From contig CAJMLN010000004.1 in assembly GCA_905214315.1 (NCBI GenBank), forward strand, positions 14,521 to 78,520: DNA of 64,000 bases. The letters run 5' to 3'. Shown piece by piece: positions 24,303-60,042 of this stretch. Each line of letters starts with the position of its first letter. The stretch's first letter is position 1. The notes under the pieces are model-generated. The model made no database searches. It was not told the origin of the DNA and saw only the letters and a list, made by a program, of their open reading frames with translations. Source of the DNA: an uncultured bacterium (lineage in GTDB: Bacteria > Bacillota > Clostridia > Christensenellales > QALW01). Position numbers and translations under genes: made by a program.

Positions 24303-24305
24303 AGG

Positions 24306-25523: not shown

Positions 25524-25535
25524 GGGATAAAGGAC

Positions 25536-27709: not shown

Positions 27710-27989
27710 AAGCATGTGTATATAAAAAAGGACTTACGCTGCATACCGCATGATAGCCCGATGAAAAAATGCGCTTTGACGATGAGAAGAAATAGCGGTG
27801 GAAAGAAAAATACGTCGCCTCTTGAAGCCGGGGAACTTTTTGCCTTGCAAAAATCCGGAGGAAGAGATAAAACGAAGCGGTGCCGTTTTTCTTTTTCATT
27901 TAATATTTGGAGTAAAAGAAGGCAGTTACGATAAAACCCCTGTTCGATTTTGTAGTGAACAGGGGCTTTATTGTGTTTGTAAGATGTTT

Positions 27990-30206
27990 TTATGTTCCTG
28001 TTAAAAAGCGGTTGACAACCAGCTGCCTGAATTCCGGGGAAAGCGACGCAAAATAGGCTGTAAAACCGGTTACACGTACAACAAGGTCAGGATACTGCTC
28101 AGGATTTTTATGAGCTTGTAATAATTTTTCGCCGTCCAGAATATTGATATTAATCAGCGTGCCGCCTAACCGAAAATGAGTTTTGATCAGATCCAGTATC
28201 ACCTGCACGCCGCCCTCCTCAAGGGTAATTTGGGGATCAAACTCCAATTGCAGCGGCGCTGTGTTGCCGCGCCCGCACTGAATACCTGCAATGCCGGTAG
28301 AGAGCGCGGTCACCGCACCGTCGATGCGGAAATGCGGGTTAGGATTGGCTCCGTGGGAGATGGGCTCGCCCCTTCTTCTTCCGTTGGGGGTAGCTCCTAC
28401 CGCCTGCCCGTACTCAATGCTTCTTGCCCAGGAAAACAAGCCCGGCACAAGCCGCCGGCCAGCCGGCATTTCCTGGGTTACTACGATTTTCGTCCACAGG
28501 GCGCTGATTCTCTTAGCCCAAGCGTCCGCTGCCGTACCGCCGCCGCAGTATTTGGGTGTGGCCTGCAGCATCAGGCGCAGCCGCTCATCTGCAAAATTAT
28601 TTTCCAGCGCTTCAAACAATTCGTTCCAGGAAAGCCTATGTTCCCGCTCGATGCGCTCCTCCATTGCGCCGAAGGAATCCGCCGCTACGGCAAGTGCCGC
28701 GCCGTCCACGCCCACGGTGAAAAGCTCGGCGCACTGCGAAGCGTCCAGTCCTTTTTCCAGACAATTGTGAAACATCAGATTCATAATCAGTTCCGGCGTT
28801 ACCTCATGGATGTGATCCAAATGCAGGTTTACGCCCTTGGCAACGGTATTCACCGCGCGAACCAAATGCTTTTGGAATAAGGCGAAGAGCCTTTCTGTAG
28901 ACGGACTGCTTTCCGCCTGCATTTCTATCAGCGCTTGTTCCAGAACTTTGGCAAGATTGACTTTTACGGTATCGTTCATCGGAAACTCTCTGCCCGGAAC
29001 ACACATCCAGTTGCAGCCGACGGCAATGCGCTGCCGCGCGGTTTTTTTGTCTACGCCGTTTTTCATATACCCGTCGCACAAATTTTTATCATCGCAGAAC
29101 CGGGGCCAGCCGTTTTTGTTTTTGAATAAGTAATATACGGCCTTTTCCAAAAATGCAGGATCGCAGTTTTCATGTACGCGCACGGTCAGGTTGCAGGAAA
29201 TATTGATCCTGTCCGCAGCTTCTAAAGCAAGGTAGGAAAGATGGTTTGTCAGATCACGGTCGTTTTCGTCCACACCGGAGAGCTGATAATAATGTGGGTC
29301 GATCAAAAGCAGATTGGCAAGAAGAAAGATGGCCGTTTCATCATCTATATTTCCATTTTTTTTGTCATTTTCGTAAAAGGGAAGCAGCAAAGTATCCAGC
29401 TGAAAGCCCGCGCCGTCACGGGTATAGATGCGGGCGGCGCAGTTAAAAAACGCCGTCCACTGACAGGCCTCATGAAATGTTTGGGGTCTATTCAGCCGGA
29501 TGTTTTGGCAGGCCGAAAGCATTTTTTCAAGGCTCTCCCTGATTTCAGGCCGGGCTTCATGCTTCAGCAGCTCCTGAATTTTTTCAATATGCCGGTCAAT
29601 AAAAGCGATAATCGCGCGCACGCATCTTTCTTCGGCATCATAAAACGCCTGCTTTTGGGGATTTTGTTTTCTTCCTTCGGCTATCTTTTTTAAAAAACCG
29701 CCAAAGCCTAATGAAAACCCAATGCGGTAATCACAGGCAAAGTGCGCGTCGCCATCAATGCCGGAGGCAATGTTGTACTTTTCCTGCAGGGGTTTTAAAT
29801 CGTCATAGGGAAAGTGTTTTTCATCCCAGCGCTTGCTCCACTGGGCCGTTGCGCCGCGCTGCATAAAATTGCGGAGCCTGGTGTTTTTTTGAATCCAGTC
29901 GGGCATATAATGGATATCTCCCCGGTAGTTTACCAGCATATCGCGCCATCTTCCGCAAAGCATTTCCATCGGATCTACATAGGGTTCGTGCGCGTCTATT
30001 ACCCGGCAGAAATTTTCACTCATTCCGTCCAGCCCGTAAAAGCTGCCGTTTTCACTATTGTACCACGGCTCTACATAATATCCCTCCGGCAGGGGAACGG
30101 TGCCGAAATCGTCCAGATCGGTATAGCCGTTTTGCTTTTTTTTCGCCAGTGTATGGGCGATTTTTGTCTGCCTCATATAGCGCAGTCTATCTTGATAGGT
30201 CAGCAT
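27990..30206 (-). CDS. Glycyl radical enzyme (PFL2/dehydratase-like superfamily), substrate unknown
   Basis: 738 aa. The C-terminal glycyl-radical motif is 'VVRVTGFTAYFASLSPEFRQLVVNRF' (Gly714). 'ATPNGRRRGEPISHGANP' corresponds to the 'TPDGR' motif. The candidate thiyl-Cys loop is 'IAVGCNWMCVPG'. Confidence 0.9.
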   Translation of the reverse strand: MLTYQDRLRYMRQTKIAHTLAKKKQNGYTDLDDFGTVPLPEGYYVEPWYNSENGSFYGLDGMSENFCRVIDAHEPYVDPMEMLCGRWRDMLVNYRGDIHYMPDWIQKNTRLRNFMQRGATAQWSKRWDEKHFPYDDLKPLQEKYNIASGIDGDAHFACDYRIGFSLGFGGFLKKIAEGRKQNPQKQAFYDAEERCVRAIIAFIDRHIEKIQELLKHEARPEIRESLEKMLSACQNIRLNRPQTFHEACQWTAFFNCAARIYTRDGAGFQLDTLLLPFYENDKKNGNIDDETAIFLLANLLLIDPHYYQLSGVDENDRDLTNHLSYLALEAADRINISCNLTVRVHENCDPAFLEKAVYYLFKNKNGWPRFCDDKNLCDGYMKNGVDKKTARQRIAVGCNWMCVPGREFPMNDTVKVNLAKVLEQALIEMQAESSPSTERLFALFQKHLVRAVNTVAKGVNLHLDHIHEVTPELIMNLMFHNCLEKGLDASQCAELFTVGVDGAALAVAADSFGAMEERIEREHRLSWNELFEALENNFADERLRLMLQATPKYCGGGTAADAWAKRISALWTKIVVTQEMPAGRRLVPGLFSWARSIEYGQAVGATPNGRRRGEPISHGANPNPHFRIDGAVTALSTGIAGIQCGRGNTAPLQLEFDPQITLEEGGVQVILDLIKTHFRLGGTLININILDGEKLLQAHKNPEQYPDLVVRVTGFTAYFASLSPEFRQLVVNRFLTGT

Positions 30207-30996
30207 ATTGCCGCAGCTCCTTCATTTTCTCTTTTTGGGGAATTTCAAATTTCTGCTGCCGTATTCCCAGCGCTTTTGCCTTGCTCAGGCCCAGTGGATG
30301 ATAGGGCAGCAGCTCATATTCCGTTACGTTTTTTAAACGCCGGATAAAATCTCCGGTTTGCCGTATATTTTTGGCCGTATCGTTTACAGTGGGGATGATT
30401 GGTGTACGGATTTTTATCGGAATCCCCAGTGCGTCAGCTTTTTGTATGTTCTGTAAAATCTGCCCGTTATCCGCGCCGGTATATTCCCGGTGCTTTGCGC
30501 CGTCGAATATTTTTATATCGGCCATGATAAAATCCGCCCGCGCTAAAACATCGGCGTCAAAGAAATACAGGCTCGTTTCCACGGCGGTATGAAGCCCTGC
30601 CTGCCGGCAAAGCGTTAAAACCTCCGCGGCAAACCGGGGTTGTGCCAAAGGCTCGCCGCCGGAGAGCGTAACGCCGCCGGAAACTCCATAATAGGGCTTA
30701 TCCGCAAGCACGGCCTGCAGAACCTGCTGCGCGGTCATCTCTGTTCCGCAGGGCACGCGCGCGCCGGCATAGCAGCCCTCCGCGCACCTGCCGCAGCCAA
30801 TACATTTTTCCGGGTAAAAGAGTTCCTGCCTTGCAAAGGAGATACATTCCGGGTTATGGCACCACCGGCACGAAAGCGGACAGCCCTTGAAAAAGACCGT
30901 TGTGCGGAGACCCGGACCGTCGTGAATGGACGCGCGCTGGATATCCGCAATCATTCCTTTACACACCGATAGGTTCCTCTTTTTTACTTTCTGCAC
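30187..30996 (-). CDS. Glycyl-radical enzyme activating enzyme (radical SAM)
   Basis: 'IQRASIHDGPGLRTTVFFKGCPLSCRWCHNPE' is the N-terminal GRE-AE signature with the CxxxCxxC motif. It has one extra ferredoxin-like motif, 'CIGCGRCAEGC'. It overlaps the GRE start by 20 nt. The start could instead be the ATG at 30954. Confidence 0.9.
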   Translation of the reverse strand: MQKVKKRNLSVCKGMIADIQRASIHDGPGLRTTVFFKGCPLSCRWCHNPECISFARQELFYPEKCIGCGRCAEGCYAGARVPCGTEMTAQQVLQAVLADKPYYGVSGGVTLSGGEPLAQPRFAAEVLTLCRQAGLHTAVETSLYFFDADVLARADFIMADIKIFDGAKHREYTGADNGQILQNIQKADALGIPIKIRTPIIPTVNDTAKNIRQTGDFIRRLKNVTEYELLPYHPLGLSKAKALGIRQQKFEIPQKEKMKELRQYADLSR

Positions 30997-32056
30997 TTGT
31001 GATGATGGCTTCCAGCATGGCCATTACCTCAACATTTTTGCTTAGCGTTGCCATAGGAGGCATTTTCTCTTTTGTTTGCTTATGCCAAGCATATAAATGC
31101 GGCATATCGGTCATCTCCGGCCCAAAGGGGATTTCGGGAACCTTCACCGGATTGCCGTATAAGTCAAATGCCTCAACGCCGGGCTGATTTTCTGCGCCGC
31201 CGGTACATAAAAGCACGCCTTGGCTGCACATGACCATCGGCCCGGAGGGGATTACGGCCCGCGGCGTTGTCCAGGTACCCTCCAGCACCGCCATTCTTTT
31301 ATCATACCGAATTACAGCAGCAAAATTATCGGCGGTATCCCCAAAGGGCGTATTCAGTTCCTGGCCCACTGCCATTACGCTTTTTCCACTGCCGAACAGC
31401 CATTGGGCAAAAAAGCAGCCGTAGCAGCCGATATCCAAAAATACGCCGCCGCCGTACTTTTTTTGGTGCCACCATGTCTTTTGACGCTGGGCATCGGTCA
31501 TTTCCTCCGCGTTTGCGGCTACACCCCGATGTCTTGCGCCCTTTCCCAAAGGTCCGGTGTGGCCGTTAATGTACCGCAGCTTCAGCGGTTCGCCCACAAG
31601 GTGAGCGTCCAAAGCGTTTTTCATTTTATGTAAATACGCACGCCACATGACCGGCCAGTTTACATAGGCCTCAATTCCGTATTTTTCAGCAAGCGCTTCG
31701 ATATCACGGGCGTCCTGCAAATTTGCCGCCATGGGCTTTTCAAGAACGATGTTGATACCGCGTGCTGCGCAGGCCTCGGCGGCCTTTCTTTTTTGGGAAT
31801 TTTCCGTAAGAATAAAGGCTATCTCCGGTTTCACCTCATCCAGCATCCGGCAGTAATCCTCATAAATACGGGGACAAAAATTTGTGCGTATATTTTCCCT
31901 GTTCCATTCCGGTGTGTACCGGAGCGGCGCAATTTTTTCTACACCCGAAGGGATATCCGCAGCCGCCTCCAGGCTGTATTCCGGGTGCCGGCTGATATAC
32001 AGGGCAACCTCGTTTACATGCATATGGGCAAAGCCGATAATCACTGCTTTTATCAT
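30959..32056 (-). CDS. Gfo/Idh/MocA-family oxidoreductase, non-canonical N-terminal dinucleotide loop
   Basis: An 'EKPMA' motif is present. The N-terminus is 'MIKAVIIGFAHMHVNE' rather than GxGxxG. I prefer the start at 32056, which forms an ATGA overlap with the upstream stop and has a GGCGGAGG Shine-Dalgarno sequence. Confidence 0.75.
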   Translation of the reverse strand: MIKAVIIGFAHMHVNEVALYISRHPEYSLEAAADIPSGVEKIAPLRYTPEWNRENIRTNFCPRIYEDYCRMLDEVKPEIAFILTENSQKRKAAEACAARGINIVLEKPMAANLQDARDIEALAEKYGIEAYVNWPVMWRAYLHKMKNALDAHLVGEPLKLRYINGHTGPLGKGARHRGVAANAEEMTDAQRQKTWWHQKKYGGGVFLDIGCYGCFFAQWLFGSGKSVMAVGQELNTPFGDTADNFAAVIRYDKRMAVLEGTWTTPRAVIPSGPMVMCSQGVLLCTGGAENQPGVEAFDLYGNPVKVPEIPFGPEMTDMPHLYAWHKQTKEKMPPMATLSKNVEVMAMLEAIITSAESKKEEPIGV

Positions 32057-33168
32057 AATTCCTCCGCCTTGATTTCTCTGTTTTCTTCCGCCGAACGGTA
32101 GAAGCATTCGATAGCCTTGGTAACCTCCAGGTTTTGTTCCTGGGTAATTAAATATTCCGTTTTGCCGGCCAGCACATCCATAATATGGCGGTACATATAG
32201 CGGTGCTGCTCAAAGGGAACACCTCGGTATGGACCGTTATCAAACCATTTCATACGGCATTCACTCTGAAAACGGCCGATGTTTTTATACAGTGTTTCAC
32301 CGTTTACCGAAAGCCCGCCTTTATCGCCGCAGATAACCATATCCAGATTCGTCGTCGGCAGATTCAGCGCCCAGGAAAATTTAAAATTTACGCTCATGCC
32401 GCCCTTCAGGCGCATAAAGCCGGCAGCAAAGTCCTCTACGTTGAATTCACGGTAATCATAGGGCCGGGGCGTAAAGGTTCCCGCATAGGCGCCGCTTTCG
32501 GCAATGCTTAATAAAATATCCTCTCCCTGATTTGCAATTTTTGTATAGGCGCTGCCGGAAACGGCTTCTACCTTTTTATTGCCTGCAATCCAAAGCAGCG
32601 AATCCATTAAATGCACGCCCAGGTCACAGAACGGTCCGCCAAAATTATGCTCCTTCATATGGAACATACCCCAGGTGGGAATGCCAATGCGGCGGATAAA
32701 TGCGATATCCGAAAAATAAACCTCGCCCAGCTCGCCGCTTTCTACCAGCTCTTTGGATTTTTGCATATAGCTGCGCCACCGCATACACTGGCAGGGAAAT
32801 AAGTGCCTGTTATACTTTTCAGCTGCCGCCCACATCTCCTTTGCATCGGCCAGCGTAAGGGCAATGGGCTTTTCACATGCTACATGCGCGCCGGCCTGCA
32901 GTGCTTTTATCGTCCATTCCTTATGATACTGATTGGGTGTACACACCGCTACAAAATCCGGCTTCAGCTCCTCCAGCATTTGCTGGGGGTCAGCATACCA
33001 CTTTTCCACGCTATGACGCTTCGCAGTTTCCTCCGCGGCTTCCGGGCGGATATCCGCTACTCCCACTACCTCTGCCAGACCCTCCTCCCGCAGAATATTC
33101 AGCGCCGGAAAGTGGGCGCTGTTTGCAATCATGCCGGTACCGATGACCGCCACACGCAATTTGTTCAT
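32053..33168 (-). CDS. Gfo/Idh/MocA-family oxidoreductase (canonical)
   Basis: 371 aa. 'LRVAVIGTGMIANSAH' is the Rossmann loop and 'CEKPIA' is also present. Confidence 0.85.
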   Translation of the reverse strand: MNKLRVAVIGTGMIANSAHFPALNILREEGLAEVVGVADIRPEAAEETAKRHSVEKWYADPQQMLEELKPDFVAVCTPNQYHKEWTIKALQAGAHVACEKPIALTLADAKEMWAAAEKYNRHLFPCQCMRWRSYMQKSKELVESGELGEVYFSDIAFIRRIGIPTWGMFHMKEHNFGGPFCDLGVHLMDSLLWIAGNKKVEAVSGSAYTKIANQGEDILLSIAESGAYAGTFTPRPYDYREFNVEDFAAGFMRLKGGMSVNFKFSWALNLPTTNLDMVICGDKGGLSVNGETLYKNIGRFQSECRMKWFDNGPYRGVPFEQHRYMYRHIMDVLAGKTEYLITQEQNLEVTKAIECFYRSAEENREIKAEEL

Positions 33169-33215
33169 TTTCTTTCACCTCATATAATGCTCCGGCGTAG
33201 GAGCCGGCGCTGTAA

Positions 33216-34655
33216 TTATTCGTTTTTAACCTCGCATACAGCCCGCTGTATCGCTCGGTAATAACTGTCGTTCATGCTTTTTTCAGTGTTTTCCGAAAGT
33301 GTCGGGCAGATCCAGCCTCCCTCGTCATGCTCGTTCCAGGCATAGATAAGCAGGGTGTTTGGCCTGCTTTCTTCATGCGCTTTCTGCAGGCGCAGTATAT
33401 TTTTAGCATGAAGATACAGCTCTTCCTCGGAGGCAGGCAGGGAATAATGCGTTCCGCTCATCCAGGAAACGGGGTTTTCAATCCGCGGGCGGAAATCGTG
33501 CCCCAGGCAAAGCAGGGGAACGTGGTCAAGTCCCGTCTGCAAAGAATACCGCATCCGACACATATCCTCATTCCGCCGGGAAAAGGAAGCATAGGGCTCT
33601 CCCGGCTGATCGGATATAAAACCGTAGGAACCAATGGCGTCAAAACCCATATCTTTTATTTTGTAAACGGGATACGGCTGCGGCTGAGCGTTCATACCGA
33701 TGTAATACGGCTCGGGATTTCCGGCGCTTTGAGCTGCCCTTGTGATATGGGCACGGTACGCGCCGTCAGCATGTACGGCGTCAAATACATAGAGAACGGG
33801 ACGGCCGTCAAATTTCAGATAATATTCTTCCTTCATCTGCCGTGCCAGCCCGGCAAGCGTTTCGTCATCCAGTCCGGAAACACGTACAATGGCCGTCATT
33901 TTTATCCTATTCCGGTATTTTGATTGTGCATGCCGCTTTCGGGCGTAGCTCATGGGATCGTTATCACGGTACCAGCAATAAGCAAAATAATCGATTCCCG
34001 CCGCTATTGCCAATTTGGCTTCGGTATCAAACCGTTCCTGTGTCTCCGGCGGAAACGAAAGGCTGCCATCCGCCTCTTCTTTGGAAAAAAACGGAGCTCG
34101 CCAATGAAATTTTTTGGGGGAAAGCGCCCGTGCAACCTGACGTGAAACATTGCTTTTCGTATCGTGTGTGGAAAAATAGGCGTCCCACCGGATAGCGCCG
34201 ACGGAAAACGGCTGCCTCGAAATCTCCGCTTTTGGTTTCTGCGCGGGGAGAATTTCCTCGGTAACAATTTCTTTTACCCAAATATCACAAAGAGGCGTAC
34301 CGGTATCCTGCATAAAATAAGCCGTCACCTCCTGCAGACCGGGGACGAAGGAAAAATCGCCGGAGAGCCATACCCAGCTTTGGTCCGTTACCAAGACTTT
34401 TTCGCCGGTATCGTAGGCAATGAATTCCTGACTGCAATGGATATAGCGCAGCATATGGCATACAGCCAAAGAAACCGGCTGTGCGCCGGAAGCAAGCTTC
34501 AGGCAATAACGCGTTCTGCCGCCGGAGGCGGGCGTCAGCCGAAGCGCCGGCGAAGAATAAGGCTGTGTTCTGTTCTTTACAAAAAGCACCCCGCCACGCG
34601 GCTCCAAAACCGCGCCTCCCTCGTTAAAAAGACGGCTGTCTGAAAATGATATCAT
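33216..34655 (-). CDS. Cytoplasmic GH99/WbsX-like (beta/alpha)8 glycosidase-like protein with an N-terminal beta-sandwich
   Basis: 479 aa with no signal peptide. It is a paralogue of the next gene, sharing 'IRWDAY', 'SPKKFHWRAPFF', 'IDYFAY', 'NPVSWM' and 'YAWNEHDEGGWICPT'. The last motif resembles the 'NEW/HxEG' motif of GH99/WbsX-type folds. The family assignment is an inference. Confidence 0.45.
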   Translation of the reverse strand: MISFSDSRLFNEGGAVLEPRGGVLFVKNRTQPYSSPALRLTPASGGRTRYCLKLASGAQPVSLAVCHMLRYIHCSQEFIAYDTGEKVLVTDQSWVWLSGDFSFVPGLQEVTAYFMQDTGTPLCDIWVKEIVTEEILPAQKPKAEISRQPFSVGAIRWDAYFSTHDTKSNVSRQVARALSPKKFHWRAPFFSKEEADGSLSFPPETQERFDTEAKLAIAAGIDYFAYCWYRDNDPMSYARKRHAQSKYRNRIKMTAIVRVSGLDDETLAGLARQMKEEYYLKFDGRPVLYVFDAVHADGAYRAHITRAAQSAGNPEPYYIGMNAQPQPYPVYKIKDMGFDAIGSYGFISDQPGEPYASFSRRNEDMCRMRYSLQTGLDHVPLLCLGHDFRPRIENPVSWMSGTHYSLPASEEELYLHAKNILRLQKAHEESRPNTLLIYAWNEHDEGGWICPTLSENTEKSMNDSYYRAIQRAVCEVKNE

Positions 34656-36508
34656 TTTGTTCCTTCTTTACGCTTTTTTTTTATAAGAAGCGATACGCCG
34701 GCTGCTGCTCCGATCACGCCGATACCCCCGCACAAAACGGGGATGAGCGGAAACTTATTTTCAATCGTTACTGCTGCCGGCGGTACCGTTGCTGTACTTT
34801 CATCCTTCGTGGGCGGCGCGGTATCGTCTGTTGTTCCGCCTGCATTTTCCCGGTGTTCGGCAATTGCTTTTTTCAGCGCATCCAAATGGCCAGTATTGAT
34901 TTTAGGCGTGCCGTCCTCATTGAAAAGCTGATTACCGTTTTCGTCCACCTCGATGGTTGGGCAAATCCAGCCTCCCTCGTCATGCTCATTCCAGGCATAG
35001 ACGGTAAGGGTATTGGCTTTGGTCGCATTTTGGATATCCTCTTGTTGCAGGTAATCGAGTGCTTCTTTTACAAAAGCGTACAATTCCTCGTCTGTGGCGT
35101 ACTGACCGTAGGAATTTTGACCGACCGTCATCCAGGAAACCGGGTTTTCAAACCGGGGTACGGTGTGCCAGCCAAAGGAGACATTGGGAATAAACTGATC
35201 GCTTGCTGCGAGGTTTTCCGCCCACATGACTTTGGCCTTTGAAACGATATCCGCGAAAGACGCTCCGTTGCTTACCGATACGCCGTAGCGTGCCGCCGCG
35301 TCACCGTAAACTTCCTTTACCTTTGCTGGTTCGTGCGACATAATCGCCACAAACGGTGCGTTTAATCCTTTCTTCTTACATTCGGCACGGTAATAGCCGA
35401 TATCGTCCTTCACCTTGGCCCATTGCGCATCGTTATCGATATACAGATATAAAAGCGGCCGGCCGTTCAGCACCGTCATATAATAGTCCTCTTCAAAAAG
35501 GCTTACGATTTCCCGGCGGAACTTATCCTGCCCGGGGGAGATGATGCAGCACATTTTGATGTCTGTATTATAAGCGCTGGCCTTATAGAATTCCCGTGCG
35601 GTTTTCATATCGCCGTCGTACATCAAAAACGCAAAGTAATCAATGCCCGCATCGATGGCATACTGCATTTCCTGATCGAAAATTTCCTGTGTATACTCGG
35701 GAATCTCAATATTTCCCTCTTCCGTAACTCTGGCAAAAAACGGGGCGCGGAAGTGATACTTGGCGGGAGAAAGCGTTTTTTCTACCTGGGAAAGAATACT
35801 GCTTTCGGTTCCTACCGTATCGTTATTATGGCCGTACCAGGCGTCCCAGCGGATCACGCCCACGGTGGTGTTTTCCTCCCGTACCGCACTGGAAACGTCA
35901 ATATGCGTTAGCGCATATTCTTCCTTTATCCCGTTCACTTCACTTACTTTTACAAGTGAAAAATCATCCATATAGTAAGCGGGTGCCTCTTCTTCTCCGG
36001 TACCTACTACCTGTACATAGACGTAAACGTGGTCTAAGCCGATCTCCTGGTCATACGTAAGCTCCTTTTCAATCGTAAACTCCTGCCAGCCGGTGGTAAG
36101 GTCCTTTTTAGCGCTGGTAAGATAGCTGTCATTTTTTTCGCCGATTTGCTTGTAATTGAGCACAAGCTGGCAGTTTGCCGGATAGCTTTCCTCCTCGGGC
36201 AGCCGCACCCAAACGCTGGCGCGGTAGGTGCCGGGCCCGCATTCCTTGATCTGATCCTTTACATTTTGCTGCCAGCAGGCCCATGCTCCCGCCCGGTTGG
36301 ATACCGAAGCGCCGTATTCCCCGCTGTGGGCATACTCGGGATCCACGTCTACGTCGCTATTGGGACCGTATTTGGCAAAGGGGAAGATCTCTCCTTCTTC
36401 AAAATCCCCGTTTATCAGCAGCTCGTCAGTCACGGCATGCGCGCATATCAAAGAAAAACACGATAAAAACAGAACGGATGCAAGCAAAAGTGCGTAAAAC
36501 TTTTTCAT
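34652..36508 (-). CDS. Secreted, C-terminally anchored CBM_4_9-like + GH99/WbsX-like protein
   Basis: The signal peptide is 'MKKFYALLLASVLFLSCFSLICAHA'. I prefer the start at 36508, with an AAAGGAGA Shine-Dalgarno sequence. 'LINGDFEEGEIFPF' is a CBM4/9-type opening. The catalytic-like domain carries 'VYAWNEHDEGGWICPT'. The C-terminus has a TM helix plus 'KKKRKEGTK'. Confidence 0.5.
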   Translation of the reverse strand: MKKFYALLLASVLFLSCFSLICAHAVTDELLINGDFEEGEIFPFAKYGPNSDVDVDPEYAHSGEYGASVSNRAGAWACWQQNVKDQIKECGPGTYRASVWVRLPEEESYPANCQLVLNYKQIGEKNDSYLTSAKKDLTTGWQEFTIEKELTYDQEIGLDHVYVYVQVVGTGEEEAPAYYMDDFSLVKVSEVNGIKEEYALTHIDVSSAVREENTTVGVIRWDAWYGHNNDTVGTESSILSQVEKTLSPAKYHFRAPFFARVTEEGNIEIPEYTQEIFDQEMQYAIDAGIDYFAFLMYDGDMKTAREFYKASAYNTDIKMCCIISPGQDKFRREIVSLFEEDYYMTVLNGRPLLYLYIDNDAQWAKVKDDIGYYRAECKKKGLNAPFVAIMSHEPAKVKEVYGDAAARYGVSVSNGASFADIVSKAKVMWAENLAASDQFIPNVSFGWHTVPRFENPVSWMTVGQNSYGQYATDEELYAFVKEALDYLQQEDIQNATKANTLTVYAWNEHDEGGWICPTIEVDENGNQLFNEDGTPKINTGHLDALKKAIAEHRENAGGTTDDTAPPTKDESTATVPPAAVTIENKFPLIPVLCGGIGVIGAAAGVSLLIKKKRKEGTK

Positions 36509-36589
36509 AGTTTCTCCTTTCCGATGGCCGGTCTTTTGCCGGCGTTTCCTATAAAGTTTATGGCGATAAAAGCTTATCGCCATATTTTT

Positions 36590-37456
36590 TTACTGTTCTT
36601 TTTTCTTTCGGGCAATGCCAATCAAGACCGGAACCGCAGTCAAGAATGCCGCCGAGGCGATCCAAAGCATCTTTGTGGAATCTCCCGTTATATACGCCTT
36701 ATCCGTGGTGGGCACTGCGCTCCAGGCTGTTTTTTGGTTTGTGGCCGTATAGGAGAGGAAGAAATCCGCCTCTTCAGCACTGCAGGCCACCACAAATTTA
36801 CTGCCCGAGAAAAGCGTCGGCTTAAAATCAAAACGTACAAACAGCTCTGAAAGCGGATAATTTGCCGTTTCCGTATGCGTAACCGTTACGGTGTTATCGC
36901 TGTTTACGGGCATGGATACCGTAAGCGTCGCCGATTTTCCCGGAGCAATGGTTACTGGATCGCTTGAGCTTTGACTGCCGCCGTACCAGCCGATGTTTTC
37001 ACCCGCGGCGTTTTTGTGAAGCACCTGCAGATACATTTGAATGTTCAGCTCCGTCTTGCCGATGTTATACACGGTATAGGATTTTTCAACCTTGCCTCCG
37101 GCAACGTCGCTGCTGCCGACAATACCGCTTTTGGATACTAAAAAGGCGTTGTTCAGATCCTGGGAAACCTCGTAAATAACACCGGTGACGGAATCGGCCT
37201 CCTCCGTCGGCGCGGGCGATTCCTGCTGGGAGACAGGCGTAAGGCTTACCTTGATATTATCCAAATACATCGGCCCTGTGGGCGCCTTTACCTGAACAAA
37301 ATAAATATTATAGTAAAATTCGTTGCTGTTGTTCTTCAATTCTTCTAAGGTACAGGGATATTCAGCGGTAAGCGTTACCCATTTTCCGTTGGCGGTTAAA
37401 ACCTCGCTGGCAGCCAAATTGCCCGAGGTATCGGCGCTGTCCTTTCTGAAATACAT
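36590..37456 (-). CDS. 3' segment of the interrupted surface-protein gene (domain B copy 2 + Ig-like region + C-terminal TM anchor)
   Basis: It is in the same frame as 37517..38698, separated only by a TAA and 20 sense codons. It has no Shine-Dalgarno sequence and no signal peptide of its own. The C-terminus is 'MLWIASAAFLTAVPVLIGIARKKKEQ'. Confidence 0.5.
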   Translation of the reverse strand: MYFRKDSADTSGNLAASEVLTANGKWVTLTAEYPCTLEELKNNSNEFYYNIYFVQVKAPTGPMYLDNIKVSLTPVSQQESPAPTEEADSVTGVIYEVSQDLNNAFLVSKSGIVGSSDVAGGKVEKSYTVYNIGKTELNIQMYLQVLHKNAAGENIGWYGGSQSSSDPVTIAPGKSATLTVSMPVNSDNTVTVTHTETANYPLSELFVRFDFKPTLFSGSKFVVACSAEEADFFLSYTATNQKTAWSAVPTTDKAYITGDSTKMLWIASAAFLTAVPVLIGIARKKKEQ

Positions 37457-37825
37457 CTTTGCGCCGAAATTATCGCTCTTTTTGATATCGGCTGATATTT
37501 TAATGATAAAATTTTCTTATCCGGAATATTTTAATGCCTCGGCATACAGCTCGCGGCCGATTGCCCAGCGGGGCGAGGCGTTATACGCTTTCGGCTGCAG
37601 CATAAGCACATGGCCATGGCCGGAGGAAGGATCCGGATCCTCTGCAATCTGCGGGATCACTGTATAATTATCGGCAGTAAATACCGCCTTGCTCCAATTG
37701 TTATCCGAGGTATACGGCCGGAAGATGCCCCATTCGGTTTTATTTCCGGAGCCGTCATAAGCCTCGGCCGGAAGCATACCCAGCGGAATTTCTTCAAAAT
37801 TCGAAATTTTTGCAGGTATGAGGTT
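37232..37825 (-). repeat. Tandem duplication unit, copy 2 (period about 759 bp)
   Basis: Near-identical at the nucleotide level to 37991..38578 over most of its length. Spurious plus-strand ORFs at 37323 and 38082 are 114-aa near-twins offset by 759 bp. Confidence 0.85.
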
Positions 37826-38698
37826 TTCTCTCCGTGCTTCCGCAGGTGCATTCGTTGCTGTAGGCGTGGGGGCGGCTGTAGCCGGAGCCGTCGTGGTAGC
37901 GGTAGGCGATACCGTAGCTGTTGCCGTAGGCGTCGGTGCCGTTGATGCGGTTGCTGTGGCCGTCGCTGTAGGCGTCACTTCTTCTAAAAAGACCGGCGTT
38001 ACCGTAGCGGTGATATGATCCAGGTAAATGGGTCCTGTAGGCGCTTGTACCTGAACAAGATAAATATTATAGTAAAACTCGTTGTTATTGTTTTGCAGTT
38101 CTTCTAAGGTACAGGTATATTCGGCGGTAAGCGTTACCCATTTTCCGTTGGCGGTCACTACCTCGCTGGCGGCCAGATTGCCCGAGGTATCGGCGCTGTC
38201 TTTTCTGAAATACAGCTTAGCGCCGAAATTATCGCTCTTTTTGATATCTACGGAGAGCTTTATTTTATACCGCACGGCCCCGGGTGTCGTCTGTGCCTGG
38301 GCATACAGCTCATTTCGGATCGCCCAGCGGGGCGAGGCGTTATACGCTTTCGGCTGCAGCATAAGTACATGGCCGTGGCCGGAGGAAGGATCCGGGTCTT
38401 CTGCAATCTGCGGAATCACCGTATAATTATCGGCAGTAAACACCGCTTTGCTCCAATTGTTATCCGAGGTATACGGCCGGAAGATGCCCCATTCGGCTTT
38501 ATCGTATGTTCCGCTGTTTACGGGTGTCTCACCGACAGCAACCGCTTCAAAGGTTGCGATCTTTGCGGGAATGACATTGGCGCTTTCCGTGCCGTCCCGC
38601 TCAACGGATTCCGCGTGGATCAGGCTAAAAACACTGAGGCAGGATGCGAGCACAGCGCATAATAGAAAAAATGAAACGATTTTTCTCTGCTTTGTCAT
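37517..38698 (-). CDS. 5' segment of the interrupted surface-protein gene (signal peptide, domain A-B copy 1, T/A/P linker, domain A copy 2)
   Basis: Signal peptide 'IVSFFLLCAVLASCLSVFSLIHAES'. The 'EWGIFRPYTSDNNWSKAVFTADNYTVIPQIAEDPDPSSGHGHVLMLQPKAYNASPRWAI' block is duplicated internally. The segment ends at an in-frame TAA at 37517-37519. Confidence 0.6.
   Translation of the reverse strand: MTKQRKIVSFFLLCAVLASCLSVFSLIHAESVERDGTESANVIPAKIATFEAVAVGETPVNSGTYDKAEWGIFRPYTSDNNWSKAVFTADNYTVIPQIAEDPDPSSGHGHVLMLQPKAYNASPRWAIRNELYAQAQTTPGAVRYKIKLSVDIKKSDNFGAKLYFRKDSADTSGNLAASEVVTANGKWVTLTAEYTCTLEELQNNNNEFYYNIYLVQVQAPTGPIYLDHITATVTPVFLEEVTPTATATATASTAPTPTATATVSPTATTTAPATAAPTPTATNAPAEARRENLIPAKISNFEEIPLGMLPAEAYDGSGNKTEWGIFRPYTSDNNWSKAVFTADNYTVIPQIAEDPDPSSGHGHVLMLQPKAYNASPRWAIGRELYAEALKYSG
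37991..38578 (-). repeat. Tandem duplication unit, copy 1
   Basis: See copy 2. The core (38021..38494 versus 37262..37735) is almost identical except for a 52-nt patch. Confidence 0.85.
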
Positions 38699-38713
38699 AA
38701 AAACTTCTCCTTT

Positions 38714-39790
38714 TTATATGATTTCTGTTTGTACCGCACTGTTTTCTTCGGCGGACCTGATTCCGGCCGAAAGCGCCGCCATTACCTGTAAATTCAAAGG
38801 CATATCAAGGGTTTCATCGATATCGCCCGTGCCGTCCATAAAGCGAAGGACATGCTCGGCCAGCGCCTCCTTACGCATCTGCGGCATATCGATCATCTGC
38901 GCAGGCGCCGCCGGCTGATGGGTTCTGCCGTGATAAATTTTTACCTGCGTGCTGTGCCTGTCGCAGACGATCACGCCATCAGAACCATAAATAACCGGTC
39001 CTGTGGGGATTTCAGCCGGATTATAGCTGCTCCAGGAGCCCTCCAGCAGACCCACTCCCTCTCCGAAATCCAGAATCATCGCGCTGTAATCCTCTACATC
39101 GGTAAAACGGGTGTCGAACTGTTTGGAAACGGCGTTCACAGCTTTTGCCTGATGCCCAAAAATCCAGGTAGAAAGCATCGTACCGTAGCAGGCGTAATCC
39201 AAAATGGAACCGCCGCCGAACTTTTTTTGATACCACCAGGTTTTTTTCAGCCATTCCTCTTCGGGAAGCTTTCCGTCCGGCGCATAGGAATAGGGTCCCC
39301 AGGTGGCGGGACTGCGGTAAACGACTCTTCTGATTCGGCCAATCTCGCCCGCATCCGCAAGCTCCTTTGCTTTGCGGAACGGCAAAAACCAGGATACAGG
39401 CCAATTGGTGATTACTTTTGTGTGATTCTTTTCCGCACAGGCCGCCATTTTTTTTGCGTCATTCAGATTCACGGCCATGGGCTTTTCCACGATCACCGGA
39501 ATTCCTTCGGAAAGCAGGGTCAAACAGATATCGCTTTTACTGCTGTTGTTTGCCGCAACGACCGCTAAATCGGGTTTTTCCTCTAAAAGAAGCTGCCAGG
39601 AAGAAAACCGCTTCATTTTCTGTGCGCCCGCGCCGAGATTTTTTTCACGCTCCTGCGGGGTGAGGCCGTCGTATTCCGGCACATCGGCAAAGCCGATGCA
39701 CGAAAACCGCTCATTGTTGCTCAAGGTGCCGAACAGAGTCGCCGCATGCGGGTGAGAAACGCCGAAAAAGGCTGTTTTTATCGATTTCAT
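38714..39790 (-). CDS. Gfo/Idh/MocA-family oxidoreductase, non-canonical N-terminal loop
   Basis: 358 aa. 'VEKPMA' is present. The N-terminus is 'IKTAFFGVSHPHAATLF' rather than GxGxxG. It is a paralogue of 30959..32056, sharing 'NWPV.W' and 'WWHQKKYGGG'/'WWYQKKFGGG'. Confidence 0.75.
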   Translation of the reverse strand: MKSIKTAFFGVSHPHAATLFGTLSNNERFSCIGFADVPEYDGLTPQEREKNLGAGAQKMKRFSSWQLLLEEKPDLAVVAANNSSKSDICLTLLSEGIPVIVEKPMAVNLNDAKKMAACAEKNHTKVITNWPVSWFLPFRKAKELADAGEIGRIRRVVYRSPATWGPYSYAPDGKLPEEEWLKKTWWYQKKFGGGSILDYACYGTMLSTWIFGHQAKAVNAVSKQFDTRFTDVEDYSAMILDFGEGVGLLEGSWSSYNPAEIPTGPVIYGSDGVIVCDRHSTQVKIYHGRTHQPAAPAQMIDMPQMRKEALAEHVLRFMDGTGDIDETLDMPLNLQVMAALSAGIRSAEENSAVQTEII

Positions 39791-39801
39791 ATTTTTTCTC
39801 C

Positions 39802-40893
39802 TTAAAAGGTCGTTTCCATTCTAACCGTACTTTCCGTACGAATAGCCTGCGGAATTTTTGTCATGATTTCAAGCACATGCCGTGCGTGCTCGGGGCGGAG
39901 CACCGGTTCGGTATCGTTTTCAATGGCCCGCACTAAATCCTTTAAGCAGCAGCACTGGCTGTTGATTTTTTCGGGAACGGTTTCCCAGGGCTGCGGAGTA
40001 ATCCAGCCGCGCATGCCGATTGCATCACTGTCGATATATACCTCCGGCATGGGATTCTGCATATACGGCTTTGTGAAGGAAATCGTTCCTCTGGTTCCGT
40101 AAATTTCAAGCTGAGGTGTTTTCGATGCTTTTTGCGAAAAACCGGTATCCACAAAACCGGCTTTTCCGTTCACAAAGCGGAGGGAAATCAGATATTCATC
40201 GGGAATTTTATCCGTTGTCATCTGCTGTCCGTTATAGGCGCCGGAGCGCACTTTGCGTTGCGGATCGGTAATCATGCTTAGGCAGCTGATGCTTTTAACC
40301 GGACCGAATACCGTCGTTACAATCTGCAGACCGTGTACGCCCATATCCACCAGTGCGCCCGCGCCGTCTTCAAAGAACCAGGAGGGGTCGGCATCGCGGT
40401 ACTGAAAGTATTCTGGTCCGCCGTGTGCCAGGTTGCATTTTAAATAAGCCGGTTCACCGATAGCCCCGCTTTCCATCAGCTGCCGGGCAACGGCTAAGTC
40501 GAACCGCATGGGGTGGATGGGCGCGCAGCCAAATTTTACACCCTTCTCTTTTGCCAGCGCAATTTGCCTGTCAAAGGCCTCCACCGTGGGGGCGGCCGGC
40601 TTTTGGGAAATCAGGTGCTTTCCCGCCTGAAGCAGCGCCATATTGATTTCATAATGCGCCTGAATACTCGCTGCGTCTATAGCGATGTCAAAGTCGCACT
40701 TTTTTATCATCTCCTGTACGGAGGGGTACCATTCCGGTACGCTGAATTTCTCTGCCGCCTCTTTAGCCCGCTCGGGAATGATATCGCATACGGCTACGCA
40801 TTTGGCGGAGGCTTCTTTTTCAATATTCGGAAGATATACGCTGTTTGCAAAACTTCCGCAGCCTACAACGGCAACACGCCATATTTTTTTCAT
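39802..40893 (-). CDS. Gfo/Idh/MocA-family oxidoreductase (canonical)
   Basis: 'WRVAVVGCGSFANSVY' is the Rossmann loop. I prefer the start at 40893 ('MKKIWRVAVVG'), with AAAGGGAAA upstream. Confidence 0.85.
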   Translation of the reverse strand: MKKIWRVAVVGCGSFANSVYLPNIEKEASAKCVAVCDIIPERAKEAAEKFSVPEWYPSVQEMIKKCDFDIAIDAASIQAHYEINMALLQAGKHLISQKPAAPTVEAFDRQIALAKEKGVKFGCAPIHPMRFDLAVARQLMESGAIGEPAYLKCNLAHGGPEYFQYRDADPSWFFEDGAGALVDMGVHGLQIVTTVFGPVKSISCLSMITDPQRKVRSGAYNGQQMTTDKIPDEYLISLRFVNGKAGFVDTGFSQKASKTPQLEIYGTRGTISFTKPYMQNPMPEVYIDSDAIGMRGWITPQPWETVPEKINSQCCCLKDLVRAIENDTEPVLRPEHARHVLEIMTKIPQAIRTESTVRMETTF

Positions 40894-40910
40894 AAATATT
40901 TCCCTTTCTG

Positions 40911-40939
40911 TTGACATCATTTTATTTTTCATCTAAAAT
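40911..40939 (+). promoter_or_regulatory. Candidate sigma-A promoter for the AraC-family gene
   Basis: TTGACA, a 17-nt spacer, then TAAAAT in the divergent intergenic region. Confidence 0.45.
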
Positions 40940-41029
40940 CATTATATGGGATAGTCGGAGGGTTTTCAAGAAACAAAATTAGCATGATATCGCACTATTT
41001 TAACATTTTTATGTCAGGAGAAGGAGACC

Positions 41030-41956
41030 ATGTTTTACAGGATATCTGTTTATCCGCATCCGGAACCGGTTACTGCATATGATATCACTCGGCAGACCGT
41101 ATGGCGCTGTGCCGACGAAAGGAATATTCTCGTCATTCTTCTTGACGGAAGCTGCTGCTTTACGCTGGCGAATCAAACGTATGAACTGTCCAAAGGCGAT
41201 ATGATCCTGATTCCCGCCGGGGAAGAATACATGCGGAAACCGGTCAAGGATCTTTCGTGCCGGTTTGCCTATATCCATTTTGAAACAAAACGCCCGATAG
41301 AAGCTATCAGGCAGGATGCGTATGAAACCGCACTCAGCGGGCTGGGGCGGGAATATTTTGAAAAACGATCTGATATCGAGGAAATTTTTCTGCCGCAGGT
41401 GGTTAAGATTACAAACGGATTTCAGGAATTGACGCACATGCTGCTTCAGCTGATGAAAGAATGCTGTCAGGCCAATCGGGTCAGCTGTTTTGCTTCCGCT
41501 TTGTTGCTTTTGCAAATTCTGCTGCTGGCACAAAAGAACGTGTTGTCGCCCTATCTGATTTCCAGCCGGATACCGGAAACATCACGTTCGCTGATTTTGC
41601 AAAAATCCGTTCATTATATCCGTAAGAACTATGAAAGTAAAATTACGCTGAAAAATCTTTGTGGACTTACGAGCGTTTCTCCGCAGCATTTAATTCGCCT
41701 GTTTCATAAGGAATTGAATATGTCGCCGGTAGAATATATCAACCATGTTAAAATCCTGCACGCTATAGAATTGCTACGTTCTTCTAACCTTACCATTGAA
41801 GAAATCTCATATAAACTGGGCTTCAGCAGCCCAAGCTATTTCGGAAGGGTGTTTAAAAGGCATAACGGTAATACGCCGCATGAAGAACGCGTTCGTATTG
41901 CGACGTTTTCGCCGGCAAAAAGAGAAAGAACCACTGTACCGCTTCCGGAACAGTGA
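41030..41956 (+). CDS. AraC-family transcriptional regulator (cupin sensor + HTH_18)
   Basis: 308 aa. The N-terminal cupin-like region includes 'GDMILIPAGEEY'. The C-terminus is 'LCGLTSVSPQHLIRLFHKELNMSPVEYINHVKILHAIELL...IEEISYKLGFSSPSYFGRVFKRHNGNTP'. It is divergent from the GRE/oxidoreductase operon. Confidence 0.85.
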   Translation: MFYRISVYPHPEPVTAYDITRQTVWRCADERNILVILLDGSCCFTLANQTYELSKGDMILIPAGEEYMRKPVKDLSCRFAYIHFETKRPIEAIRQDAYETALSGLGREYFEKRSDIEEIFLPQVVKITNGFQELTHMLLQLMKECCQANRVSCFASALLLLQILLLAQKNVLSPYLISSRIPETSRSLILQKSVHYIRKNYESKITLKNLCGLTSVSPQHLIRLFHKELNMSPVEYINHVKILHAIELLRSSNLTIEEISYKLGFSSPSYFGRVFKRHNGNTPHEERVRIATFSPAKRERTTVPLPEQ

Positions 41957-56129: not shown

Positions 56130-56214
56130 AAATAAAAATGTATGTCTATAGCCTGGAATATGGGCAATGGCAGGCAAAAAAACTTTTAAAATTATGAAGT
56201 TTGAGGTGAAGGTT

Positions 56215-58860: not shown

Positions 58861-58863
58861 AAA

Positions 58864-58900
58864 ATATCCGGCGACTGTAATGCGCGCCGGATATTTTTGT
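58864..58900 (+). terminator. Rho-independent terminator
   Basis: 10-bp stem atatccggcg / cgccggatat followed by ttttgt. Confidence 0.65.
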
Positions 58901-59211
58901 AAAGAAAATTATGCGGCAGTTGGATGAAAAGAATCAACAATAAAAAAGGGAAAAGAAAAATCTCGCCTTTCACGGATCAGAGAGGCAGGGTTTCTTAATT
59001 GGAGGAAGAGCCGAAGAAATGTCGGAGCAGCTTTGCTGACAGGCTGGCAAAGATCGCGGTTCATTTGCGGAAGAATCGCCGCACGGCTGACAGGTTGATA
59101 GGAAATCTGCCGCCGGCCGTGCTCGTAAAAGAAATTCTCTGTATAAAGGGAGCGGACGTCATGCAGACGGAAAAAAATGCAAGATTTTTTTAATATGGGT
59201 ATGGACATTCA

Positions 59212-59240
59212 TTTGAAATATTGTTATAATAATAGAAACT
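59212..59240 (+). promoter_or_regulatory. Candidate sigma-A promoter for the thuA-like gene
   Basis: TGGACA, a 17-nt spacer, then TATAAT. Confidence 0.45.
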
Positions 59241-59261
59241 ATTTTTAAGGAGTATAACAAA

Positions 59262-59987: not shown

Positions 59988-60042
59988 GCTTTTGTGCGGA
60001 TAGGATAGGCCAGTATTGAATTTGCTGTGGGAGGGGATACCA

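Follow-up and report, generated by a model that had tools for sequence, protein, structure and literature searches.

A gene for an oxygen-sensitive glycyl radical enzyme (GRE) and the gene of its activating enzyme (AE) close a minus-strand gene string in the 64,000-nucleotide stretch analysed here (the window; positions 14,521 to 78,520 of contig CAJMLN010000004.1, assembly GCA_905214315.1, from an uncultured bacterium of the Christensenellales), and the same string encodes four oxidoreductases of the Gfo/Idh/MocA family, which we call GfoA to GfoD. Comparison with related sequences shows this GRE/AE pair to belong to a new clade that is genetically coupled to DgpA-like oxidoreductases, sugar importers and regulators. 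The GRE is probably a new functional class within a known superfamily, and its conserved pairing with the Gfo genes hints at a so far undescribed way in which a sugar derived from a glycan is broken down anaerobically. The central idea of a preceding sequence-only reading of this DNA, namely that an orphan GRE is functionally tied to (keto-sugar) oxidoreductases of the Gfo/Idh/MocA family, holds through conserved synteny.

The GRE gene (27990..30206, minus strand) encodes 738 amino acids, and its product matches in Pfam both the PFL-like barrel (PF02901, 1.2e-86) and the glycine-radical domain (PF01228, 3.9e-14). The Gly loop reads R711-V-T-G714 and the Cys loop G397-C398-N-W400-M-C, where C398 aligns with the cysteine of the GC(V)E motif of PDB entry 2f3o and of PflD. 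The neighbouring activase gene (30187..30954, minus strand), which overlaps the GRE start by 20 nt, codes for a radical-SAM protein of the TIGR02494 family (279.5 bits against an NCBIfam cut-off of 174) carrying C39-x3-C43-x2-C46 and one ferredoxin-like CX2CX2CX3C motif. Judging from these motifs, the GRE is fully equipped for glycyl-radical catalysis, and the barrel, the RVxG loop, the catalytic Cys and the cognate activase make it a member of the PFL-like GRE superfamily.

As to its function, no NCBIfam equivalog model reaches the cut-off for this protein. The best model, TIGR01774, covers the broad PFL2-3 subfamily (262 bits, cut-off 678), and the equivalogs, including those for HypD, HpsG/HpfG, CutC, PFL and the decarboxylases, score 60-206 bits with cut-offs of 994-1150 (186/1100 for HypD, 190/1000 for HpsG, 140/1050 for CutC, 206/1109 for PRK09983 and 59.7/994 for the formate lyase model TIGR01255). 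Among solved structures, the closest are Archaeoglobus fulgidus PFL2 (2f3o; 185 bits over residues 148-733), PflD (181 bits) and glycerol dehydratase (1r8w; 174 bits). Since the equivalog and PDB scores all lie far under the cut-offs, the assignment of a known function was rejected, in agreement with the earlier placement of this GRE outside the characterised isofunctional families. The best solved match, PFL2, has the GCVE motif, is archaeal, stands in an unrelated genomic setting, and its function is debated.

Two residues after the catalytic Cys, where the alignments with 2f3o, PflD and glycerol dehydratase have the Glu of GCVE, the GRE has a Trp. The CXE motif is kept by all six C-O eliminases and by the three GRE isomerases, and its Glu is hydrogen-bonded to the substrate (PMC13450708, a review of June 2026). 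This feature of glycerol and propanediol dehydratases (GD, PD), HypD, CutC, IslA, HpsG/HpfG, HplG, YbiW and PflD is absent here, the loop being G-C-N-W. Absent as well is the Cys-Cys pair of the formate lyases PFL and TdcE: in C-N-W-M-C the second Cys is non-adjacent, and this residue (C402) was rejected as a PFL-like partner because it is not conserved in the clade described below. On the whole, the enzyme matches no characterised family and, from its sequence, looks catalytically competent but equipped unlike every described class.

The Trp is common to a large group of enzymes. Among 1.84 billion cluster representatives searched there were 4584 GRE relatives, and 163 full-length ones were aligned with the locus-derived sequences and placed in a quick neighbour-joining distance tree, in which the 95 aligned GREs that carry C-x-W form one clade with no non-W sequence inside. 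W400 is invariant in this CxW clade, whereas Glu occupies the position in 57/57 CXE-type sequences. C398 is 100% conserved in 152 aligned GREs, and H155, C398, R610 and G714 are common to the CxW and CXE groups. By contrast, W400, E407, Y408, D412, E472, L477, Q643, P651 and T713 are kept in at least 91% of the CxW clade and are uncommon among CXE-type enzymes (28% or less, and for nearly all of them 18% or less), D412 (C+14) being present in 28% of the sampled CXE-type GREs. H155 and D412 align with H164 and Asp447 of glycerol dehydratase, a correspondence that depends on alignment offsets. The alignment and the tree show that the GRE sits in a large, monophyletic and uncharacterised clade, in which an invariant Trp replaces the general-base Glu of CXE.

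More than 100 clusters among the matches listed are 72-93% identical to the GRE, and the few that bear a source name come from metagenome-assembled genomes (MAGs) of Clostridia, Oscillospiraceae or Monoglobaceae; the genome matches are all uncultured MAGs (21/21), from human, ruminant and other guts. One member of the CxW clade, P0128 (1052 aa), is a natural fusion of an N-terminal radical-SAM activase, with a ferredoxin-like insert, to a GRE. We had considered it as a Gfo-GRE fusion, and this was rejected in favour of the activase-GRE architecture.

Of the described GREs, the 1,2-eliminases (glycerol and propanediol dehydratases, HypD, CutC, IslA, HpsG, HpfG) share with the present enzyme the 10-stranded barrel, the Gly loop, the Cys loop, the conserved His (H155) and an AE of the same TIGR02494 family; the Asp at C+14 (D412) is shared by only a minority (28%) of the sampled CXE-type GREs. 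They differ in the catalytic Glu, replaced here by the invariant Trp, in the E407, E472, Q643, P651 and T713 that are specific for the CxW clade, and in size (about 790-850 aa against 738 aa); a microcompartment or aldehyde-processing context is also lacking here. The 1,5-anhydroglucitol-6-P and 1,5-anhydromannitol-6-P C-O lyases YbiW and PflD are likewise PFL-like enzymes with a cognate activase, and in gut bacteria their target is a sugar ring. Second among the PDB matches of the GRE is PflD; the identity to these lyases is only about 28-30%. Their pathway is anhydroglycolysis, and the Gfo family includes 1,5-anhydrofructose reductases, one of which is the top structural match of GfoD. YbiW and PflD, however, keep CXE where the GRE has CNW, and they have no Gfo partners. 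In their pathways the substrate is first phosphorylated by the phosphotransferase system (PTS; PMC12441222), while the clade of the present GRE is accompanied by ATP-binding cassette (ABC) importers and no PTS.

The coupling to the Gfo genes follows from the neighbourhoods of the relatives. In a tblastn search with the window proteins, the core consisting of a divergent AraC gene and GfoA-GfoB-GfoC-GfoD-AE-GRE was found uninterrupted in loci L001/L024, L010, L016, L017 and L023 of other gut Clostridia, and GfoA orthologues 62-74% identical lie contiguous with GfoB-C-D-AE-GRE in other genomes. The divergent AraC gene is kept in ten of the loci (L003, L010, L011, L012, L013, L016, L017, L023, L025, L026). 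Other layouts are a divergent AraC followed by AP_endonuc_2, a long Gfo, a GfoC-like gene, GfoD, AE and GRE (L003, L018, L025, L026), GfoD-AE-GRE only (L015, L019, L021), and AraC with AE-GRE and without Gfo (L012, L013); AP_endonuc_2 accompanies Gfo-Gfo-AE-GRE in L003, L018, L025, L026, L039 and L049. GfoD is the most constant neighbour of AE-GRE. When Gfo genes within 7 kb were counted, in those loci where the sequence upstream of the GRE spans 4 kb or more, 21 of the 23 loci with a GRE identity of at least 65% (orthologues) had one or more Gfo genes and 18 had two or more; at 45-64% identity four of 14 loci had at least one, and the same four at least two, and below 45% the figures were nine and five of 24. 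These counts are approximate, as genes in the fetched loci were called as naive longest open reading frames (ORFs) and grouped by BLAST clustering, and the sample includes duplicate contigs of one MAG (e.g., L001 and L024).

The order GfoC-GfoD-(small ORF)-AE-GRE recurs at a GRE identity of only 41-44% (L032, L059, L069, L070), with GfoC 53-59% identical beside those distant GREs, and this recurrence excludes chance adjacency for the Gfo genes. Where the sequence-only reading had allowed for mere adjacency, GRE/AE and Gfo genes proved to be syntenic across many genomes, down to about 41% GRE identity. We therefore regard, from comparative genomics, the two Gfo pairs, the AE and the GRE as an ancient and conserved six-gene module. 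The GRE, at 69-77% identity across relatives, is far more conserved than the Gfo set. Linkage of a GRE to Gfo/Idh/MocA or mannosidase genes is absent from the list of characterised GREs in the June 2026 review and from full-text literature searches, in which no paper paired a GRE with Gfo/Idh/MocA, DgpA, 3-keto glycosides, mannosidase, inositol or anhydroglucitol in this system, the matches being reviews or papers on other matters; the earlier claim that this context is undescribed stands on both counts. Neither did the literature searches bring up a dgp or dfg cluster with a GRE.

The four oxidoreductases form, by their motifs, two pairs, each of one DgpA-like member with an NAD motif (GfoA, GfoC) and one member with GxxHxH and CYG motifs (GfoB, GfoD). 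GfoC (32053..33168, minus strand), a putative NAD-type sugar oxidoreductase, matches DgpA (PDB 7xr9) end to end (residues 1-363 against 2-363; E 2.4e-55, 35% identity) and shares with DgpA, which like DgpA1 is a C-glycoside 3-oxidoreductase, the NAD motif (G10-T-G-M-I-A), EKP (E99-K-P) and D-x3-H (D-L-G-V-H), so that the comparison with DgpA made from the sequence was well founded; inositol dehydrogenases gave only E 1e-13 to 1e-17 in the same PDB search. DgpA, a Gfo/Idh/MocA enzyme from gut bacteria, oxidises a C-glucoside at its C3-OH, with tightly bound NAD(H) and with 3-oxo-glucose accepting the hydride, and the PUE dgp operon holds two Gfo-family genes (bioRxiv 10.1101/816074). Unlike the dgp systems, the window contains no DgpB/DgpC deglycosidase, and GfoB and GfoD have no Gly-rich loop. 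GfoA (39802..40893, minus strand) has DgpA1 as its closest solved relative (PDB 9m3d, E 7e-21) and carries GCGSFA, QKP in place of EKP, and D-x3-H.

GfoD (30959..32056, minus strand) and its paralogue GfoB (38714..39790, minus strand) represent an atypical subfamily. In GfoD, GFAHMH replaces GxGxxG, EKP is kept and D-x2-C-Y-G replaces D-x3-H; GfoB has GVSHPH, EKP and D-x2-C-Y-G. The invariant signature of the subfamily is G-x-x-H-x-H ... EKPMA ... NWP ... WW ... GGG-x3-D-x2-CYG ... EG-x-W. The AlphaFold2 (AF2) model of GfoD (predicted local distance difference test, pLDDT, 89.9) has the complete two-domain Gfo fold, and its top Foldseek match is the bacterial 1,5-anhydro-D-fructose reductase 2glx, closely followed by many members of the family, DgpA2 and scyllo-inositol dehydrogenases among them. 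Foldseek was rejected as a guide to GfoD function, as many Gfo-family structures score nearly equally. The two-plus-two layout suggests, as we infer, two couples that oxidise and reduce, or two heteromers.

The whole string occupies 27990-40932 on the minus strand, with ten ORFs in a row separated by at most 60 nt or overlapping, and a divergent ORF on the plus strand (41030..41956) encodes a cupin-AraC family regulator (PF12833, PF00165, PF02311). The earlier placement of the ten ORFs and the regulator is correct, and Pfam and NCBIfam profile searches likewise recover the families it had named (GRE, activase, four Gfo/Idh/MocA, CBM4_9/WbsX and cupin-AraC). For four genes starts shorter than the ORF are likely from where homologue alignments begin: M18 in GfoD (ORF to 32107), M15 in the AE (ORF to 30996; homologue alignments begin at residues 13-15), M14 in GfoA (ORF to 40932) and, probably, M26, at 36508, in the carbohydrate-binding-module (CBM) protein described below. 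Start M18 of GfoD (32056) would give an ATGA overlap with the GfoC stop, and overlaps of this kind are typical of translational coupling. The intergenic region between GfoA and the AraC gene (40894..41029) would serve as a divergent promoter region: the two best sigma-70-like matches of the locus, 11/12 each and no more than matches to the consensus, lie back to back in it at 40969-40941 (minus) and 40911-40939 (plus). A split of the operon by internal terminators was rejected, since terminator-like sites in the gene string do not exceed background (27 found, 21.6 +/- 3.7 expected), and an Rfam search of the locus gave no riboswitch or other RNA element. The gene string reads as one AraC-controlled catabolic operon built of two modules.

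The second module consists of four extra ORFs that sit exactly between GfoB and GfoC and have matches only in L005-L009, a lineage about 93% identical. Genes for surface glycan-binding and GH-like proteins (GH, glycoside hydrolase) had been taken as part of the system; they turn out to be an insertion in this lineage, and their homologues elsewhere occur without a GRE. Co-occurrence of the 'WNEHDEGGW' proteins with the GRE, proposed earlier as a check, failed: their homologues in other genomes have unrelated neighbours with no GRE nearby, and on this ground these GH99-like proteins were rejected as GRE partners. Compared with the MAG locus L005, most of 33.7-40.2 kb, which takes in GfoA, GfoB, the surface-protein gene and the greater part of the GH99-like genes, is 97-99.8% identical in nucleotides, against 76-89% over GfoC-GRE (27987-33700) and 82-86% in the housekeeping flanks (18000-27700). 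Such a mosaic suggests recent recombination or transfer of the segment between species, in which GfoA, GfoB and the inserted genes would have been exchanged. A patch at 34688-35187 is only 80% identical to L005.

Within the insertion, the gene at 36590..38698 (minus strand) is broken by an in-frame TAA. It encodes in relatives a surface protein of 702 aa (gene call in L005) that has a signal peptide, a domain duplicated internally, a linker rich in Thr/Pro/Ala and, at the C-terminus, a transmembrane (TM) anchor; in the window a single G->T change (GAA->TAA) at 37517-37519, seen against L005 and L008, leaves ORFs of 393 aa (37517-38698) and 288 aa (36590-37456). The gene may have become a pseudogene recently, unless the change is an error of sequencing or assembly. 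The protein had been described as a duplicated secreted CBM-like surface protein; the internal tandem repeat and the signal peptide are there, while there is one gene and not two, and Pfam has no CBM or other family for either ORF. The next gene (34652..36583, minus strand) encodes a predicted surface-anchored protein with a signal peptide, a CBM4_9 module (PF02018, 1e-12), a GH99-fold domain and a C-terminal TM anchor, and the last (33216..34655, minus strand) its cytoplasmic paralogue, as had been proposed (34% identity, E 2e-56; no signal peptide).

The WbsX-like PF14307 matches of these two paralogues are marginal (27.8 bits for the cytoplasmic and 25.5 bits for the anchored protein; cut-off 25.1), and a PDB sequence search gave no solved relative. 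The earlier GH99/WbsX-like label gains more from structure prediction. In the AF2 model of the 479-aa cytoplasmic protein (pLDDT 94.8) an N-terminal beta-sandwich resembles CBM22, and the (beta/alpha)8 domain finds GH99 endo-alpha-mannosidases/mannanases as its best Foldseek matches (E about 1e-10, template modelling score 0.55-0.64), followed by GH71. The predicted fold is thus like that of BtGH99, BxGH99 and human MANEA; the family has the invariant motif Y-A-W-N-E-H-D-E-G-G, in which N-E-x-x-E-G is included, and its E442-x-x-E445 has the spacing of BxGH99 E333/E336 (a match in spacing only). Against this likeness, sequence identity amounts to just 13-15%, Pfam gives no GH99 match, and the inserted proteins are not conserved with the GRE. 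From the comparison of loci, the inserted module is an accessory 'front end', recently acquired, lineage-specific and outside the conserved system. Its GH99-fold and surface proteins would probably release the feedstock from an alpha-mannoside-type glycan.

No transporter was found, either within the locus or in the rest of the 64-kb window. The earlier remark on its absence is right for this DNA, though not as a property of the system: relatives have CUT1 or CUT2 ABC importers or major facilitator superfamily (MFS) genes beside AE-GRE. A metagenome scan added 80 further loci at 35-75% GRE identity, in which naive ORFs were clustered and Pfam was run on the cluster representatives. In about 10 loci, CUT1 importers (SBP_bac_1 and two BPD_transp_1) stand directly upstream of [Gfo]-AE-GRE; in L030 and L031, AE-GRE is flanked by a CUT2 monosaccharide ABC system together with a ROK protein; a PfkB sugar kinase follows immediately after the GRE in L063 and L097, and sugar regulators of LacI, AraC or Peripla_BP_3-AraC type recur. 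The solute-binding proteins of related loci were rejected as a source of the substrate's identity, as they show only generic similarity of the ribose (CUT2) or maltose/oligosaccharide (CUT1) type. No PTS was seen in the related loci, which argues for a non-phosphorylated substrate.

GH38 adjoins in about five lineages (L001/L024, L051, L074, L093, L094/L099), with the order URO-D-GH38-AE-GRE in L051 and ROK<-GH38 | SBP-permease-permease-AE-GRE in L094/L099, and a GH26 gene lies near the GRE locus in L025. In Bacteroidota-type contigs (L054-L056, L107, L114; GRE 46-52% identical) AE-GRE opens a polysaccharide utilisation locus (PUL) with GH92 and SusC/SusD; in L056:327-13737 the order is AE-GRE, a 140-aa ORF without Pfam match, GH92 enzymes (one with a PA14 domain), SusC and SusD. 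With the GH99 fold of the window, these neighbours make up a repeated, though not universal, alpha-mannoside theme.

Some further genes beside the relatives deserve mention. Uroporphyrinogen-decarboxylase-family proteins (PF01208) recur beside GH38 and GRE (L051:397-7569, L074, L076, L093 and the neighbourhood of P0125). At a single locus (L093:6628-11513) a lipoyl-domain E1 (thiamine pyrophosphate-dependent) and a transketolase-like E1-beta, resembling acetoin dehydrogenase, lie immediately upstream of GRE-AE; an enzyme of this kind could split a product that is a methyl ketone (1-deoxy-ketose). Small ORFs, about 140 aa long, adjoin AE/GRE in distant relatives, as in L032:6730-7167, with weak cupin/ureidoglycolate-lyase similarity (E 3e-4), and in the Bacteroidota cluster c26 (L055:12152-12580 and others), without Pfam match.

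Taking these data together, we tentatively favour, with somewhat less than even confidence, a radical C-O cleavage on a non-phosphorylated hexose-type ring within an AraC-regulated operon. That the substrate is of sugar type is suggested by the likeness of GfoC to DgpA, the match of GfoD to 1,5-anhydrofructose reductase and the ABC, ROK, AP_endonuc_2 and PfkB neighbours. The AE would install the radical on Gly714, and Cys398 would abstract a hydrogen alpha to a hydroxyl of the ring, candidate substrates being a mannose-configured sugar, a 1,5-anhydrohexitol or its keto form, on which Trp400 may stack. The ketyl radical would then expel a vicinal C-O substituent (hydroxyl, ring oxygen or glycosidic oxygen), a chemistry of the eliminase or ring-opening-isomerase type, as in the diol dehydratases and YbiW/PflD, with another base; a clade-specific acid (E472, E407 or D412) may replace the Glu of CXE. 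The deoxy-keto sugar product could be phosphorylated (by PfkB in some loci), cleaved and led into glycolysis. As for the Gfo pairs, they would provide a redox-neutral interconversion of hydroxyl and keto groups at C2 or C3 (epimerisation, or formation and reduction of a keto-sugar), acting either before the radical step, by funnelling related sugars in, or after it, by processing the keto product. The broader proposal, that the CxW clade as a whole is a new functional class of GREs for C-O/C-C cleavage of a non-phosphorylated sugar ring (mannose-configured hexose, anhydrohexitol, keto-sugar or cyclitol), with a Trp-lined pocket, a non-CXE base and DgpA-like pairs, seems to us nearly an even call, if slightly on the doubtful side.

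Several points weigh against the C-O cleavage on a hexose-type ring. Its substrate and reaction are candidates drawn from sequence and gene context. A canonical eliminase mechanism is hard to reconcile with the missing Glu of CXE, and the base put in its place is a guess. The Gfo enzymes may be helpers and not indispensable partners, as some orthologues have AraC-AE-GRE or transporter-AE-GRE without them; GfoB and GfoD, with the Gly-rich loop replaced, are putative NAD binders at most, and the modelled GfoD matches 1,5-anhydrofructose reductase barely better than many other Gfo structures. GH38 or GH92 neighbours occur in only about 10% of the sampled loci, by the approximate counts from naive longest ORFs, and free mannose needs no radical chemistry, so the association with mannosidases alone names no substrate.

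Some of the same observations would suit a cyclitol, with the Gfo enzymes as inositol/inosose dehydrogenases that interconvert myo-, scyllo- and chiro-inositol and the GRE dehydrating or ring-opening inositol or inosose, in place of IolE/IolD under anoxia. The top NCBIfam match of GfoC and GfoA is indeed IolG (98 and 73 bits), scyllo-inositol dehydrogenases are structural neighbours of GfoD, a Trp could stack on a cyclitol ring as on a pyranose, and several Gfo paralogues, AP_endonuc_2 (IolE/IolI fold), CUT2 importers and a PfkB kinase after the GRE (the IolC family) recall iol clusters. We nevertheless consider this route unlikely: the IolG scores are far under the cut-off of 355, GfoC resembles DgpA (E 2e-55) far more than it does the inositol dehydrogenases, no IolB, IolD or IolJ neighbours were seen, the literature search returned no link between GREs and inositol, and the association with GH38, GH92 and the GH99 fold would be unexplained unless the feedstock were a mannosyl-inositol. 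Rather improbable, in our opinion, is a GRE that works as a variant 1,2-diol dehydratase on an aglycone or polyol (glycerol, glycerate, propanediol or a tetritol) released from glycosides, with the Gfo enzymes handling the sugar separately. The enzyme has lost the CXE Glu on which every characterised dehydratase depends, the genes for aldehyde dehydrogenase, alcohol dehydrogenase or a microcompartment that go with diol dehydratases are absent from its surroundings, and the tight and ancient GfoC-GfoD-AE-GRE linkage is hard to explain with different target molecules. What speaks for such a dehydratase is the place of glycerol dehydratase 1r8w among the best PDB matches, the agreement of His155 and Asp412 with diol-dehydratase substrate-binding residues, and the loci L094, L099 and L051, where GH38 and AE-GRE are the whole system, as would fit hydrolysis of a mannosyl-X with the GRE acting on X.

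The kinship of GfoC and GfoA with DgpA and DgpA1, the presence of DgpA2 among the top structural matches of GfoD and the two Gfo genes of the PUE dgp operon could also mean that the Gfo enzymes oxidise a recalcitrant C-, S- or unusual O-glycoside at C3, while the GRE replaces a DgpBC-type lyase or cleaves C-C/C-O of the resulting enone or 3-keto sugar. AP_endonuc_2, which has the DgpC fold, cuts both ways here: it occurs with Gfo-Gfo-AE-GRE in the six loci named above, yet it would already be a polar lyase and make the GRE redundant for that step, and the window has no AP_endonuc_2 gene. As, in addition, loci with AE-GRE only exist, and the much higher conservation of the GRE than of the Gfo set suggests one common small substrate and not diverse glycosides, we regard this explanation as more improbable still. 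Finally, the GRE/AE and the oxidoreductase/GH genes might be unrelated neighbours on the same strand. The recently inserted GH99-fold and surface genes, unlinked to GREs elsewhere, behave in this way, but the GRE-Gfo synteny across families and phyla, the gene overlaps as in translational coupling and the single divergent AraC promoter region that serves the string make such a coincidence very hard to believe for the locus. The radical cleavage of a hexose-type ring remains the reading that we prefer.

Housekeeping genes flank the locus: one side has mutS, mutL, miaA and aspartate kinase, the other CNNM, spoIIE and the dnaK operon. An ORF of 282 aa without Pfam match (26861-27709), convergent with the GRE, separates the latter from aspartate kinase and holds the same position in L005-L007 (281 aa). 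Elsewhere in the window, a second group of carbohydrate-related genes at the right end (56167-62195) comprises an 897-aa DUF5060 and apiosidase-like protein (56167-58860), a ThuA-like protein (59262-59987), an ORF without Pfam match (60016-60858) and a mannitol-dehydrogenase-family protein (60915-62195, minus strand). A 471-aa SASA-domain protein (sialic-acid-specific acetylesterase, a carbohydrate esterase; 5024-6439) is encoded amid amino-acid biosynthesis and tRNA-synthetase genes.

In general, GREs are among the most abundant protein families of gut microbiomes, and with every class newly assigned (CutC, HypD, IslA, YbiW/PflD) a metabolic route of relevance to the host has come to light. 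The clade described here is, as a whole, without the motif that defines all known eliminases and isomerases, has relatives in Bacteroidota-type PULs and in sediments, and stands in a context that is consistently carbohydrate-related. Its six-gene core is a compact and directly testable system. Solving the clade would add a reaction type to radical enzymology and explain the role of many paired Gfo/Idh/MocA genes in anaerobes, and it could reveal a nutrient of glycan origin, perhaps connected with alpha-mannosides of yeast or host, that is beyond the reach of polar chemistry without oxygen. If our proposal is true, the CxW clade would stand for a widespread way of using carbohydrates anaerobically that has gone unrecognised in Clostridia of the gut, in Bacteroidota and in bacteria of sediments.

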